Shown here piece by piece: positions 45,404-53,300 of a stretch of 64,000 bases of DNA. Source of the DNA: Rhizodiscina lignyota (Eukaryota); the NCBI GenBank assembly GCA_010015805.1, contig ML978131.1, positions 1 through 64,000 on the forward strand, written 5' to 3'. The notes beneath the pieces were generated by a model. That model saw nothing but the letters and a program-made list of their open reading frames with translations. It searched no databases and was not told the origin of the DNA. The position numbers were made by a program, and so were the translations under genes. Position 1 is the stretch's first letter; each line of letters begins with the position of its first letter.

Positions 45404-47069
45404 ATGAAACCCCGAGTCAAGCATCTCCAGTATCTACACCAAGTGGACCATTTATTCCAGTCCTCGCATAGACCTGTTGCATATCTCGTCTTCTCCAGGC
45501 GAGCAGTACACTCGAGCAACGCAAAGCATGCTTCGGCAACCGCTTCCCAACCCACAATTCTCTCTGCTCCACCGACCCCCGATGCACAAAGCCATGTAGC
45601 ACGCAAACAACCTTCCACTGGCACCGAGTCTCCCCTCTCCGTCCTCCCAACCTCGCAGATCCTCCGAACGTACCTAATTACCAGACTGTCATCCTCGCCG
45701 GCCCTGTTAAACCTCTCGCTTTCCATGCTCCACCGCATGCTGGCGTCACACTCTCTACTCACGAGTCTCGACCGCAATCCTCTGCTTCGATGGTTACTGA
45801 AAAGGACATTCTATGCTCAGTTCTGCGCTGGAGAGAACAAGCAGGAGGTTCTGAGCACTGTCGCAAGAGTTACGAATACGGGATACAGCGGAGTAATTCT
45901 CGAGTATGCTTTAGAGGTTCTCAAAGATGGAGACAAAGGCCCGGACAGCCCGATCACAAAAAGGGAAATTGAGATGTGGCGGAAGGGGATGATCGAATCA
46001 GTAGAAATGACAAGGAAAGGCGACTTTGTTGGACTCAAGTACGTCTTCTGTCTGAATATTCCTCAGAATTATTTTTTCAAAGTGTGGCTCACGTTGTAAT
46101 AGATGGTCTGGACTCGGCCAGCACGCATTCGCATTGCTTAAAGCAAACAAACCGCCGACAACCGCCATGCTTTCGGCAATCCACGAGGTCTGCGAATTGG
46201 CGGCGGCGAAAGGCGTTGGACTTCTCCCAGGCGCAGAAGAAGAAGTGACCAATCCAGGCATCGACGCCTGGACCTTGATGCTCCAGGAGCGATATAACAG
46301 TCTCAATCCCTCTGCAGCAACCATGTCATCCCAGACTCGGGGATCGACCCAGGGCGGGCCAGGAATTACTGCAGCGTCCAACGGCAATACGACAACGCCG
46401 AAGCCAATCATGTACACTACGTTCCAGGCGTACTTGCGCAGCACGCCAGCAAATCTCTCTCGCCATCTTGCTTCTGCCCGCGCAAACAACCATATCCTTG
46501 GTATCAAACTCGTACGAGGCGCATATATGTCCTCGGAACCCGCCTCGGCCATCTGGCCCTCCAAAGAAGAAACAGATCGGGCCTATGACGAGCTGGCCTC
46601 TGCGCTGCTGAAGCGACAATACGGCGGTATCCTGCAGCCCTTACACGGCTCGAGTTCTGAGTTTCCCGAGATCGACGTCGTGCTAGCGACGCACAACGTC
46701 GCCTCCGTTCGCAAGGCCACAGCTGTCCGACAGGAGCAGCTTGAGCGCGGCGAGCCGCGAACCAACGTCGTATTTGCGCAGCTGATGGGTATGGCGGACG
46801 AGGTGGGATGCGAGCTTTTGGCCTTGGGAAGGAGCGCGAGGGCGGAGAATGAGGCTGCGGCGCAGAAGGCGGGAGAGAAGGAGAAGGAGGTTATGGACGT
46901 GCCGAGGGCGCTGAAGTGCTGCACTTGGGGCACGCTGAGCGAGTGTCTGAACTTTTTGGTGAGGCGGGCGGCGGAGAATAGGGATGCGGCGGGGAGGACA
47001 GAGGAGAGTCGACGGGCGATGGGGAGGGAGATCTGGAGACGGTGTAGGAGGACGGTTGGGCTTTCGTGA
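45404..47069 (+). CDS. put1: proline dehydrogenase (mitochondrial)
   Basis: join(45404..46038,46103..47069). TFYAQFCAGE, GVILEYALE, TFQAYLR, GIKLVRGAY, LATHN, FAQLMGMADE and FLVRRAAEN. Confidence 0.92.
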
Positions 47070-48240: not shown

Positions 48241-48257
48241 TGAATTTTTTTTCACTC
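48241..48257. promoter_or_regulatory. RRPE-like element upstream of the putative snoRNA host transcript
   Basis: tgaattttttttcactc; the reverse strand reads GAGTGAAAAAAAATTCA, resembling TGAAAAWTTTT. It lies ~60 bp before a CA-rich leader. Confidence 0.35.
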
Positions 48258-48883
48258 CCCTTCCGCCGCCATCGCTGGGCGCGCGAGGCGTGTCTCTGAC
48301 CGCTTTCGCGTACTCAACGAACACCACCACCCACACAACAACCACAACTTCTCATACCTTATCCGGGCATGGGACAGCTCCTAGAGGTATGTTTAGTCGT
48401 TAGATCTTGCTTTTATCCATCAGGATATTCGTGAAGTGACACGGTCGACGTCGCTGGCTCAGGCGTGCCTGGAGGCTGCGGAGCTCGACCGCGTCTTCCT
48501 TCAACACCACAGCTTCGCAAGAGCTTGATGCTCTCGAGGCACCTTCTGATGACCTAGTCTTCTGTTAGATAGATCTCTCAACCATTATTTGGCGGCTTGA
48601 CTCAGATCTTGTCGTCGTACGAGATAAACACCTCCGTAAGGAGTCACTTGGGAGCTTCGCTCAAACACCATCAGTGGCTGGCGACAATCCTCAAACCGTG
48701 ACAACAACCCTTCGATCACAACAACTGCAACTGTCAGCCTCGTCGCCGTTGCGATATACTGTAGAAAGATACGTACCGTTGGCGAGCTGTTTCTCAAAAG
48801 GTAAGTCCCCATCTTCTGTCTCCCCATACCCCCTTGTTGCCTTTACCAATTTAGGTGGACCTTATTGTTGTTCTTTGCTCTTC

Positions 48884-49051
48884 TGGTTGCTGCTTGAACC
48901 TCTTTGTTGGTTCTATCATAGACTGGCATCGGTGGTCCTTCAGTAACCTCTCAATGGCATCGGACTAAGGCAAGGCTCCGAGATCAACATAGGCACATAA
49001 CAAGCTTCACACTTTAGTGTCAGTGATGAAGTTCTTCGATGCCAGACAACC
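48884..49051 (+). ncRNA. box H/ACA-like snoRNA, copy 1 (intronic)
   Basis: 5' hairpin ggttgctg..cagtaacc, H box AGATCA at 48981-48986, 3' hairpin ggca..gcttca..tgaagt..tgcc, ACA at 49046-49048. Confidence 0.65.
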
Positions 49052-49244
49052 CCTTCTTTTGTTACCAGCGATTGCAGAATCCAGTGATGCGGAAAGCTAA
49101 CATTAACTGACTAGGCATCGCCGCATCAGTATGGCTTCCTCCTGAAGTAGCATCTTCAAAGGTGAGTAACCGTCTCTTTCTTCTCAATTCAGAATCCCTT
49201 TCGTCGATTCGATAGACCGGACTCACAAGGCGTTCTTTTGCCTT

Positions 49245-49412
49245 TGGCTGCTGCTTGAACCTCTTTGCTGGTTCCACCGTGGACTGGCATCGATGGTCCT
49301 TCAGTAACCTCTCAATGGCACTAGAGCACAGAACAAGTCCAAGATCAACATAGGCATATAACAAGCTTCACACTTCAGTGTCAGTGATGAAGTTCTTCGA
49401 TGCCTGACATCC
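49245..49412 (+). ncRNA. box H/ACA-like snoRNA, copy 2 (intronic)
   Basis: Paralog of copy 1 with a pairing-preserving change tcta/taga to tcca/tgga. H box AGATCA at 49342-49347, ACA at 49407-49409. Confidence 0.65.
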
Positions 49413-49596
49413 CTTCCCCTCGACACAGCTTCATAGAACGCAGGGCTGTGCAATACTGACAGCGACTGCTCAGGTATCGATATATCTCGAGACGTTGAGA
49501 TTCATTTCCCGGATGGCCTCTGACACGCGGTTGTGGATTGGTGAGCGACTTCCAGATCTGTTCCGTACTTGCTTCGAATCTGCTCCTTTTCCAGCT

Positions 49597-49723
49597 GTGC
49601 AATGATGAACCAAAAAATTATAAATTGAGAGAACATCGTATTGGCTACCGGCGAGGTTTCGGGCTTGCTCAGATACCAGCCAGGCCATGCCGATAACACC
49701 AATTACTACAAAACTCTGAGGGT
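49597..49723 (+). ncRNA. box C/D-like snoRNA, copy 1 (intronic)
   Basis: C box ATGATGA at 49602-49608, D box CTGA at 49716-49719, internal hairpin. The D box is 69 nt before the 3' splice site. Confidence 0.6.
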
Positions 49724-49881
49724 CCTCAAATCACTCGTATATAATTTGCCTCTTGAGTTCAGATGGCTAACATTTTGGATACCGCAAGGCACACCGCGGT
49801 GGTGACACGTGGTAATGGATTGGTGAGCGACTTCCAGATCCCTTCCGTATTTGCTTCGAATCTTCTCCTTTTCCAGCTGCT

Positions 49882-50000
49882 GCCCAATGATGACCAGATT
49901 AAGACCAGCGAATTAGCTATTGGCGGGGTTTCGGGCTTGCTCAGATACCAGCCAGGCCATGCCGATAACACTATATACTACCAAGACTCTGTCTGAGGGC
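49882..50000 (+). ncRNA. box C/D-like snoRNA, copy 2 (intronic)
   Basis: Terminal stem GCCC/GGGC, C box at 49887-49893, D box at 49993-49996, 76 nt before the 3' splice site. Confidence 0.65.
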
Positions 50001-50187
50001 ACAAATTCCCGCAAATCACTCGTATATAATATGCCTCTTGAGTTCAGTTGGCTAACAATTTGGATACCGCAGGACACGCCCCGGTGACACGCGCCCAGGT
50101 AGTCTTTTTTTGGTCTCGGAGGTGATCTTGGTGGGCTTCTCTTCCACGTCGAATAGTACGTTACACCTCCAGTCCTTCGTACCCAAT

Positions 50188-50319
50188 CGCCATGATGACC
50201 CATAAATGTTTGATCCAAGTGAGAGAACAAAACTGGTAGAGGAGTGTAACCCGGAAGGAAACTTCCCGTGGTTTATCTCTGAAGCCAGACGATGATCAAA
50301 AATATTCCTGTCTGAACCA
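50188..50319 (+). ncRNA. box C/D-like snoRNA, copy 3 (more diverged)
   Basis: C box at 50192-50198, internal hairpin ggaag-GAAA-cttcc, C'-like CGATGA, D box at 50312-50315, 74 nt before the 3' splice site. Confidence 0.55.
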
Positions 50320-53300
50320 ATTTGTTGTCCACTTGTTGACACGTCCAAGGATTTGCTGATGCAAATGGCTAACTTTGTGGAGGCAATAGGATTCGCTCCG
50401 ATCCATCTTCCCGACTGCCCGGCCACACCGCGACCCTCGCTCTCGATTTCGGCACGTTATGCCTCGATGTCCGAATGTCAGGTGGTGGTAGTGACGACAA
50501 TTAGGCCGGGGAGTGTCTAATGCACCATTGGTCCGTGGATGTATGCAAAGAATTGTCCTTTAATTGGCCTTTTTCTTCTTCGTCGAAATGGTGGGCGGCG
50601 CCATGATAAGACCAAGAGACCAGAAGGATTTGGAGGCATGTTCCGTCGTCTGCCATATATTCAGGGCCTTGCTAATGCTTCTTCAGTGAAGCCTCGCTGA
50701 CTGCAGTCCGCAATCTGTTGGATATTTTTGCGGTTGGTCGTCGGGTATGTTGCATCTTTCTTTCTTCAACTGTCTGGCTGCTACGTGATGACTCCAATGT
50801 AACCGATACTACAGCTGAATGAACACAGCATTGGCACTTCAAAACTGTGACGAGATATCCCGAATCGCAAATCCCATTGCTGTCCATCGAGCGAGAGAAT
50901 CTGTGGCATGGAGTCGATCGCGACATTACCAGGACATCCAGGCTTATCCTGGTCCGGTCCGGTCTAGCGTGGCATGAGGCGGCGAAGAGCTACATATATG
51001 GACGGGCAGGAGCAACTGGTAATAACTAAGGTATGCTTTGCATTGCCAGCACATCTCGCTCGATTGCTAATGTATCAGTAGTAGCGAGGGACCGATCCCC
51101 AGTTCGCACCACGCCGCAGTAAGAATCGTCGACAGCAGTAAAGTCGCAACCCCGATCGACGTGCAAGAAAGCCAAGGATAGTCTGATGGTCTTGACGAGG
51201 CCGCAATGGACATCGGAACGAAGAGTGTGCATGGAGAGAAGTCCAGTTCTTCCGCTTGGGGAACATTGTACTGAGAGTCGGCTTCGAACAAAGCGGCTTC
51301 GGAGCTGCCGGAGAACATAGCCCTTGCATCAGAGCATGGCCTGTTTCCTTTCCCTTGCTTTCCCCTATGTATATACACTGTATATTACTCTGAGTATAGA
51401 CGAACGATCTCTCTTTTCGAGAATGAACACTGGTGTCCAGTCCAAGGCAGCCTTGACAGCGACGAGCGGCAGTGAGAACAGATCGACGCTATTGCGGGAT
51501 GTACATGTGTCGAGAAGAGCGTATCAAGTAGAGATAGCGAAAACTTGCGATCAGGATTTTACTCTTGAGAGGGTTGCTTCCAGTGCCAGGTTCGTGGTAG
51601 CTCCCAGACGCTTCGTTTCATCCTGCCCGCCGACCAGGCATCCAAAGTCGCGGCCTTGTTCTCCTCCTCTTTATTTCAGCCAGTTGAGCATCAAACTACC
51701 GTGCTGTGGGTATGGAAAGAAGGCCCATCGAATGTTTATCTGTTCCTTGTACTTTTCTACCCAGGCCGCATGGTAGCTCCCAACTTGCGTTTGTCATTCC
51801 GGGGCTGGCAGCACTGTTGTGGTTTGCTGTACCTCCCTCTGCTTTTGCATACATCAGCCTGCCGTGCGACCGAAGTGGTAACAGGTCACATTGACATTCG
51901 TGTTTGTTGCTGACAGTTCAAGTAGTCATGCGCCGACGTGCGCGACGAGGAGAGAGAAGTTCTGAGCGACGATGGCGGCAAAGGTGATAGGCGTGCAGTT
52001 ACTCTCCAGGTCCAGAGTTAGAAGCCATGTGCTCAGAAATGGAGAGCAGTTTCGATTCAGCGACAGCTTTCGACATTTAAGAATGCACCAGTGAGCTCAA
52101 GCCCTCAGTTCTCCAACTGAAAGCACTCCACAAAGTAGCGCCCTCTCCCATAAGCTTATACGTATTCGTCAGAATCGATCAGGATCCTGAAACTTGCAGA
52201 GCAAGTGGCCACTCCGCCGTGAGGAAGGTCAAACGCCCTTTCGGAGTAGCGCCAGCGCTGCGCAGCACTGGTGACTGATTGGCCTCTCGGTGTCATGCGT
52301 TGATTTGGGGCTTGGGTGTCGGTGAGAGGCAATGGAGATTACATTCCAATGCGTTCTGTCTCTGGCAAAGGCATCGTCGACCACCGCGGAGACTTCGTAT
52401 TGGATACCAATAGCCTTCGCAAGAAGATCGTCACCGCGATAGTATCGAGAGCCTTTGTACTGGCATCATCGAGCTGGACTGCGCGGAGCGTGGTATTCGT
52501 TCATCTACGCACAGTAGACATGTGCAAACCGCAGCGCCATCATCTTCGGCATGTTTCGGTGCATTCGAATAGGCATCGATATCATATGGTATCTGCTCTG
52601 TTGCCGTCAGGGTAGTTTGGTAAGCCGGGCAATCAACTCCATCAAGCAAGGCTTGCTCTATCGCGTTCAGGTTTCCGCCAGCGAACATGAGCGCCTCTTT
52701 CGACGCGTTCATAGCACTCGCAGTCTCCGCGAGTTATACAGCCTGATCTGTTGCTCGAAGAAGAGCAAAATGAGAATGGCCAGGAAGACGCACAGTCCAG
52801 CATTGCTAAGGATACCTAGCTGCGAGGTCGCTGAATCCGGATTCGGATGGACCGCAACATTCGTTGATCGAAGTGGTCCAAAGTTTTGGACACGAGTAGT
52901 CACAATGCGTACATCGGTATATGGAAGTTCCACCGTCTTGCATTTGATATTATCGTCAGTTAACGACAGGGGCCTGTTTAACGGCATCCATACCGAACCG
53001 AACTCGCCGGCGCAGGGACGTATGTTTGCGATTGGTTGTTGAGATGTCGAAATCGAAAGATTTGCATCTACATCTCGGTTACCATCGTCGCATCATCATC
53101 CTTTGCATTTTTCAAGATGATATACCCCCTTGTTCGTGTTCCAGCGAACCGAGGCCGCAAATTCGGTGTGGGTCCGTTGGTGGACCGACTTCAATGGCCG
53201 ACGTGCTCCTGCCGCAGCACTTTTGTCGGGCGACGAAGTGCCAGAGAGCACAGACGAGCCGTAAGTCCACTTCCTGGCGCTTTCTTCTTTATTCGTAGTG

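Follow-up and report, generated by a model that had tools for sequence, protein, structure and literature searches.

Introduction

Hosts that carry both H/ACA and C/D small nucleolar RNAs (snoRNAs) are known in animals. Among fungi, the comparable systems include clusters I–VI of Neurospora crassa, in which UHG-like non-coding hosts with multiple introns carry C/D RNAs only (Liu et al. 2009, PMC2780460). Here we describe a locus of the Dothideomycete Rhizodiscina lignyota (assembly GCA_010015805.1, 33.4 Mb in 33 contigs), situated within the first 64,000 nucleotides (nt) of contig ML978131.1 (hereafter the window), that is very probably a host of guide RNAs and apparently makes no protein. Six small guide RNAs appear to be carried in its introns, namely two H/ACA RNAs, three C/D RNAs and one C/D-like RNA. 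All of our results derive from analysis of the DNA sequence, and both the splicing and the small RNAs are predicted.

One snoRNA per intron, short exons and a C box 40–60 nt after the donor in most units are common to the Neurospora clusters and to the R. lignyota locus, which differs from those clusters in mixing H/ACA with C/D RNAs and in being tandemly duplicated. The classical snR57-snR55-snR61 cluster (RF00472, RF00476) has the same host design. In Neurospora most snoRNA genes are singletons and 2 of 20 H/ACA genes are intronic, and mixed clusters are known in plants and trypanosomes (PMC2780460). Most H/ACA RNAs of Candida are exonic (PMC5033589), C/D clusters and orphans were described for Aspergillus fumigatus (PMC2377427) and a single intronic H/ACA candidate, located in a coding gene, was reported by Gao et al. 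2021 (PMC8216456). No mixed fungal host of the present kind was encountered in the literature searched, which was mostly without subscription papers.

A second set of comparable systems concerns U2 small nuclear RNA (snRNA). Guide-directed pseudouridylation of U2's branch-point recognition region has been shown in Schizosaccharomyces pombe, and the U2 guides pugU2-43/44 of this yeast and SCARNA8/U92 of vertebrates target the same region as is predicted for units of our locus (PMC5473140). Yeast snR81 and Neurospora CD29 (U2-Am31) are likewise guides for this region. The candidates described below differ from these known guides in their positions (39 and 36), in being intronic and clustered, in one pocket that fits only a variant U2 and in lacking an Rfam match. 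We place about even weight on the proposal that the locus is a spliced, non-protein-coding host whose intron-released guide RNAs work like small RNAs specific to Cajal bodies (scaRNAs) on U2.

Predicted intron chain

Five chained donor–branch–acceptor introns were predicted across 48801–50389, with exons of 47, 67, 34 and 26 nt between them (Table 1). The longest chain in 1000 dinucleotide shuffles was 0, 1 or 2 introns in 702, 290 and 8 cases, respectively, with none of at least three, and 44 further loci of the same genome (314 kb, both strands) reached two introns at most; the true margin over shuffles is smaller because shuffling ignores that two of the intron pairs are duplicates. An ordered arrangement of C box, D box, branch site and AG occurs three times at the locus and nowhere else in the window, and was found once in 3 of 1000 shuffles. 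Between the ends of the D boxes and the 3′ splice sites lie 69, 76 and 74 nt. On the predicted splicing, the locus has the attributes of a UHG-type host, these being one snoRNA per intron, a spacing of about 70 nt between D box and 3′ splice site and the absence of a conserved open reading frame.

An earlier, model-made reading of the same DNA (the first-pass annotation) had proposed a non-coding host whose introns hold H/ACA and C/D RNAs, regularly spaced donor, branch and acceptor signals and D boxes 69–76 nt from the 3′ splice site. All three proposals are supported at the level of sequence, the spacing of the signals by a chain far above that of shuffles and other loci. The suggested intron size of about 280–310 nt applies to some introns, but the predicted range is 248–314 nt. 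The flanking introns 1 and 7 have hairpins without full box sets. Segment 48430–48545 of intron 1 has a fold z of -2.8, and this intron was not picked by the H/ACA scanner described below. The proposed end of the locus at 50690 was too short, as the array continues with a donor at 50745, a C box at 50785 and a CUGA at 50815. More intron-like signals occur 3′ of the array at 51031–51078 and 51878–51922.

Table 1. Positions of predicted features of the guide RNA host locus (window coordinates) and of the variant U2 genes (contig coordinates; C numbers denote contigs of the assembly).
Feature	Position	Strand	Remarks
Putative promoter motifs	48241..48286	+	TGAATTTTTTTTCAC then CGCG run; weak
Predicted intron 1	48387..48572	+	donor GTATGT with several candidate acceptors; holds two hairpins but lacks a full box set
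Predicted intron 2, 314 nt	48801..49114	+	GTAAGT..GCTAAC..TAG
H/ACA RNA copy A, ~195 nt	48857..49051	+	long 5′ hairpin, H box AGAUCA 48981-48986, 3′ hairpin, ACA 49046-49048 + 3 nt
Copy A 3′ pocket	48999..49038	+	arms AACAA 48999-49003 and UCUUCG 49033-49038; same as copy B arms, on which pairing was scored
Predicted intron 3, 312 nt	49162..49473	+	GTGAGT..ACTGAC..CAG
H/ACA RNA copy B, 194 nt	49219..49412	+	H box 49342-49347, ACA 49407-49409; arms of the 3′ pocket at 49360-49364, 49394-49399
Predicted intron 4, 248 nt	49541..49788	+	AAG acceptor
C/D RNA 1	49602..49719	+	C AUGAUGA, D′ CAGA 49670, C′ AUGCCGA 49687, D CUGA 49716
Predicted intron 5, 250 nt	49823..50072	+	recent duplicate of intron 4 + adjoining exon
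C/D RNA 2	49887..49996	+	RNA 1 paralogue; one 25S match with a bulge, no convincing target
Predicted intron 6, 291 nt	50099..50389	+	weak, uncertain donor; alternative GTACGT at 50156
C/D RNA 3	50192..50315	+	C AUGAUGA, D′ CUGA 50279, C′ ACGAUGA 50289, D CUGA 50312
Possible intron 7	50482..50686/50706	+	donor GTGGTG weak; structured but lacking a full box set; not picked by H/ACA scanner
Possible intron 8	50745..50967	+	donor GTATGT; acceptor uncertain, 50967 or 51078
C/D-like RNA 4	50785..50904	+	C GUGAUGA, guide 50801-50814, D′ CUGA 50815, C′ GUGACGA 50847
Variant U2 genes	C24:136764-136955; C6:1596496-1596687, 1619154-1619349, 1635451-1635642, 1672302-1672498		five copies

H/ACA and C/D units

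Introns 2 and 3 each contain a predicted H/ACA RNA (copies A and B). Unconstrained folding of both copies produced a hairpin–hinge–hairpin–tail structure in which the H box AGAUCA (fitting ANANNA) lies in the hinge and the ACA is 3 nt from a 3′ end that was inferred from where conservation stops. The fold of copy B has a z of -2.4, with 2 of 200 shuffles equally stable, and the 3′ lower stem of copy A is of only 4 base pairs (bp). In 128 kb, an H/ACA-shape scanner picked only copies A and B, the latter with its 5′ hairpin shortened, and it returned one match in 314 kb of other loci. This background match (locus L012, 3529–3737, on C23) is possibly another uncatalogued H/ACA RNA.

The repeated core of 168 nt, which the first-pass annotation had taken for the whole H/ACA unit, proved to be the conserved part only of a unit of about 195 nt. 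It is far more alike between the copies than its flanks are (148/170 identical columns versus 53/91 and 37/64, with shuffled DNA at 50%), and on these alignments the conservation of the core over its flanks is a product of selection or gene conversion. By reading, 12 substitutions were counted in the ungapped core, five of them unpaired, four pair-keeping and three pair-breaking in one copy; the pair-keeping ones include one double change, from U-A to C-G, located in the 5′ hairpin. The 3′ pocket is identical between copies and the basal 5′ pockets differ. Reading the units of introns 2 and 3 as C/D RNAs, for which they hold GUGAUGA followed by CUGA or CAGA, was rejected because they lack a 5′ C box and form a complete H/ACA fold. 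The units also hold an 11-nt complement (49036–49046) and a 12-nt copy (49281–49292) of a 5.8S ribosomal RNA (rRNA) segment, probably by chance.

C/D RNAs 1–3 have perfect terminal C (RUGAUGA) and D (CUGA) boxes and spans of 118, 110 and 124 nt. RNA 4 would at best work like a C/D guide, and in its predicted fold the C box is hidden within a stem. The motif GAGAGAA(C/U), complementary to nt 4–11 of variant U2 (see below), is present at 49627, 50221 and 50893 in C/D RNAs 1, 3 and 4, which accounts for three of its five plus-strand sites in the window. Elsewhere in the genome, locus L006 (C19:453905–456969) has an arrangement of C box, D box, branch site and AG like that of an intronic C/D RNA, with a weak match to the snR61 model nearby.

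Duplication of the array

Both pairs of direct repeats named in the first-pass annotation were recovered by alignment, and its suggestion of expansion by exon–intron duplication is supported at sequence level. Segments 48884–49051 and 49245–49412 repeat with a period of 361 nt, and 49521–49802 and 49803–50085, comprising introns 4 and 5 with exons, share 240/298 columns with a period of 282–285 nt. Intron 6, which carries C/D RNA 3, aligns with intron 4, which carries C/D RNA 1, at a score of 92.5 (maximum of 100 shuffles, 65.5), while kinship of intron 6 with intron 5 and its C/D RNA 2 was not detectable (51.0 versus a shuffle maximum of 74). On these scores, the first C/D unit has an older relative in the third. 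Tandem duplication of units made up of exon plus intron, 361 and 282–285 nt long, would have enlarged the array. Repeat-induced point mutation needs repeats of about 400 bp (Liu et al. 2009, PMC2780460), and the paralogues may have survived because both periods are below this length.

A DNA search found no further copy of the units in the genome, and viral contigs gave 0 matches. In metagenomes, a first search had 0 matches and none of the 16 matches of a later search was homologous.

Comparison with known families

A check against Rfam had been proposed with the first-pass annotation; no family of Rfam 15 matched at gathering threshold in the 64 kb, the best E values of permissive scans being 1.6–3.6, and the U24 model had no match in the whole genome. 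The earlier failure to equate the array with a classical yeast cluster was justified, since the snR55-snR61 cluster is located elsewhere, on contig C2, where both RNAs have intact guides and score below their own family cut-offs. Paralogy of the units to snR55 or snR61 was rejected as no alignment rose above shuffles. By eye, RNA 1 and RNA 3 have box-adjacent likeness to CD38 and CD34 of Neurospora, respectively, and no unit matches Neurospora sequence beyond such box-adjacent stretches in a comparison by eye only with the supplements of PMC2780460. The about 120 families of the snoStrip fungal set (Canzler et al. 2018, PMC5824354) could include units of this locus.

Variant U2 genes and predicted targets

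The genome has 17 matches to U2, 15 of which are above cut-off. Comparison of 16 copies identified eight with GUAGUA, five with CGAAGAUUUUGUUCUU and three that are otherwise different. To our knowledge, GUAGUA in U2 is nearly invariant across eukaryotes. In the five variant copies, GAAGAU replaces GUAGUA as the branch-recognition sequence; stem III has diverged between these copies with the CGAAGAUUUUGUUCUU segment kept, all five carry a double change at one pair of stem IIa and three of them at a second pair, and the genes have TATA boxes and pyrimidine tracts. Human snRNAs also include a multi-copy U2 family with sequence variants (PMC8457000), whereas the five copies here have a rewritten branch-recognition sequence, compensatory stem changes and an apparently matched guide. 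No such fungal U2 variant was met in the literature searched (again mostly without subscription papers), and no variant U1, U4, U5 or U6 was found near the variant U2 genes, only U2 being above threshold in 140 kb. By analogy, the branch site expected for variant U2 is AUCUUAC. A third form of U2, with GAAUAA, is located at C6:1601015. Captured RNA-gene pieces are present in locus L150 (5100–7000; C17:255100–257000), namely a U2 5′ fragment, an 18S-like stretch, a partial U4 and a U2 copy with a short direct repeat on its flanks. The end of possible intron 8 (50942–50967) has a GCTTAT branch-like site that is, speculatively, nearer to a variant-U2 than to a canonical reading.

Targets were sought in the organism's own U2, U4, U5 and U6, in 27 tRNA-like loci and in ribosomal DNA (rDNA) of a contaminating, Sordariomycete-like fungus, used as a proxy because the assembly has no 5.8S match; its own rRNA, U1, U3 and most transfer RNAs (tRNAs) were outside this set. 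In both H/ACA copies, the 3′ pocket is predicted to pair with variant U2 through UCUUCG on CGAAGA (33–38) and AACAA on UUGUU (41–45), giving 6+5 = 11 Watson–Crick pairs that leave U39-U40 open. Four of these 11 pairs involve bases differing from canonical U2, which has an A at 39. This U39, in 5 of the 16 U2 copies scored, was the best match of the pocket in about 6.2 kb of RNAs, with a chance probability of 0.0375 among all RNAs (400 shuffles, 6211 nt) and 0.006 among snRNAs (3000 shuffles, 754 nt). The pocket-to-ACA spacing of 13 nt equals the count, made by eye, for Neurospora ACA5. The guide of RNA 4 pairs with canonical U2 33–45 by 9+3 bp, with one internal mismatch and the first position unpaired, and points at A36 (P 0.005 among snRNAs and 0.02 among all RNAs). 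An internal stretch of RNA 3 (50223–50232, before CUGG) forms 10 bp with variant U2 39–48 (P 0.19), and the best fit of the copy A 5′ pocket was U18 of U2 (9+3 bp, P 0.16). Target matches were not above chance for the 5′ H/ACA pockets or for the inner loops of the 5′ hairpin when treated as pockets. Taken together, three of nine guide elements have their best match in U2 (P about 0.006) and two of nine within nt 30–48 (P about 0.005; 2978 shuffles each).

The first-pass annotation had regarded these RNAs as orphan, lineage-specific guides. The lack of an Rfam family agrees with this, but 'orphan' is probably too weak, as two elements best fit U2's branch-point recognition region. From these pairings, the case that U2 is a real target of at least one unit is evenly poised. 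Based on established snoRNP biology, the host would be transcribed from about 48300 by RNA polymerase II, spliced, debranched and trimmed, yielding H/ACA RNAs of about 195 nt with Cbf5 and C/D RNAs of about 115–130 nt with Nop1. These guide RNAs, one per intron, would act like scaRNAs on U2. The most open steps are the last, in which the conserved 3′ H/ACA pocket would make pseudouridine at U39 of variant U2 and RNA 4 would methylate A36 of canonical U2. A further proposal, of a second U2 small nuclear ribonucleoprotein that reads branch sites by GAAGAU, with co-evolved guides from the array for both U2 forms, is speculative and, on the present sequences, doubtful. A similarly tentative status attaches to the modifications then expected from the array, which would be pseudouridine 39 and perhaps Gm43 on the variant and Am36 on canonical U2.

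Several points weigh against a scaRNA-like array acting on U2. The U2 tests were post hoc in that the variants were added after the rRNA tests had failed, the 13-nt spacing was adopted with the match already known and RNA 4 had first been spotted by eye; the H/ACA scanner was likewise written after the units were seen. Chance probabilities for the 3′ pocket rise to 0.063 with spacings of 12–16 and to 0.078 with shuffled guides, the best match of six of the nine guide elements is not U2, whole-unit complementarity to U2 was not above chance (P 0.09–1.0) and the target set had the gaps given above. TCTTAC branch sites were not enriched in intron-like positions in 0.72 Mb (5/240, 0.79x background, compared with 26/190 for GCTAAC), and therefore such introns are rare or variant U2 does something else. 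Among the units themselves, the fold of copy A is no better than shuffles (z -0.9; 36 of 200 equally stable), three core substitutions break a pair as noted above, and any covariation rests on two paralogues because the metagenome searches gave no homologue outside the genome. The only candidates for the terminal D box of RNA 4 are non-canonical CUGU at 50880 or 50901. Finally, C/D RNAs 1 and 2 are less alike in their interior (93/123) than in their flanks (57/64 and 64/77) and hence have no sign of selection on them; these two RNAs may be drifting duplicates.

Alternative explanations

The locus could instead be a real snoRNA host of rRNA guides or true orphans, with the U2 matches due to chance and the targets being lineage-specific rRNA sites invisible in the proxy. 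We consider this possible, if rather unlikely. Only proxy rDNA was scored for rRNA sites, and Chaetomium thermophilum has 112 pseudouridines compared with 47 in yeast and a guide set that is not annotated (PMC12723226). The runner-up for the 3′ pocket (score 9.9) is a 25S uridine near the peptidyl-transferase centre, which is, however, absent from the C. thermophilum pseudouridine table; a lower match (7.8) maps to C. thermophilum pseudouridine 1918 and ranks third among 478 uridines (PMC12723226). Several C/D guides nearly match known methylation regions, these near-matches being interrupted by a bulge or mismatch not far from the box. The strongest case is the D guide of RNA 2, which forms 17 bp with 25S with one bulge next to the box (P 0.02, 60 shuffles); the other six of seven C/D guides in the window had P values of 0.07–0.93 while the control guides snR55 and snR61 found their proxy rRNA sites (P 0.00 and 0.05). 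In proxy rRNA, no clean complementarity of at least 10 bp adjoined D or D′ of RNAs 1–3, H/ACA pockets gave P 0.11–0.57 in an initial scoring of targets, and nothing clean emerged in proxy rRNA, U4, U5, U6 or the 27 tRNA-like loci. Searches for C/D guide targets in 594 kb of retrieved DNA produced isolated matches only, none annotated as an RNA target. The over-representation of U2 among best matches also speaks against chance pairing.

A degenerate piece of 25S on C23 was rejected as a target as it is an isolated fragment. Within this fragment (C23:66380–66820) are two inserts, one of 53 nt with the pattern GT..GCTAAC..AG and another of about 66 nt, a hint of spliceosomal-type introns in the rDNA of this fungus. 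Two tRNA-like genes of unusual sequence (called Met-CAT and Ile-GAT) lie 5 nt apart at C12:600025–600173.

It is improbable that the array is decaying, that is, a once-functional host with drifting duplicates whose small RNAs no longer guide anything. Such decay would fit with the missing selection signal in C/D RNAs 1 and 2, the weak donors of introns 6 and 7, the non-canonical D box of RNA 4, the pair-breaking changes in H/ACA copy A and the presence of degenerate U2, U4 and rDNA pieces in this genome. Against it, units 1–5 have every C, D, H and ACA box intact, as well as five branch sites, conservation of the H/ACA core far exceeds that of its flanks and the target is exactly the same in the five variant U2 copies although these have diverged.

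Least plausible, and very improbable, is a small protein-coding gene of 178 amino acids from ATG 48209 with snoRNAs in its introns, since this frame, although open when intron 1 ends at 48572 and introns 2–4 are removed, is cut to 62 amino acids by acceptor 48557, starts upstream of the putative promoter motifs and has no homologue among 108 candidates of 136–2000 amino acids (a weak test), and exons 4–6 consist of tandem repeat ends. The view of the first-pass annotation that there is no credible open reading frame agrees with the failure to find a homologue but needs amending for this one splice choice.

Genomic setting

The upstream neighbour of the guide RNA host is a proline dehydrogenase gene (PF01619) with its end at 47069. 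The best named match of its product is a Rhizodiscina protein (92%), with the others, many of them from Dothideomycetes, at 59% or less. Transcription of the host is inferred to start near 48300, downstream of the putative promoter motifs, and a similar pair of AAATTTCA and CGCG was seen by eye upstream of the snR55-snR61 cluster. We take the promoter motif to resemble the yeast ribosomal RNA processing element (RRPE); a search of the window with the RRPE pattern matched nothing.

Conclusions

A mixed H/ACA and C/D intronic host with tandem paralogues is a layout unreported in the fungal literature searched. What is surprising is that a guide may be matched to a rewritten U2. The speculative second U2 ribonucleoprotein with co-evolved guides would, if real, amount to a variant spliceosome confined to this lineage and equipped with a modification cassette of its own. 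The five variant U2 copies, with their apparently matched guide, would make it testable whether one nucleus can have two branch-site specificities outside the U12 system.

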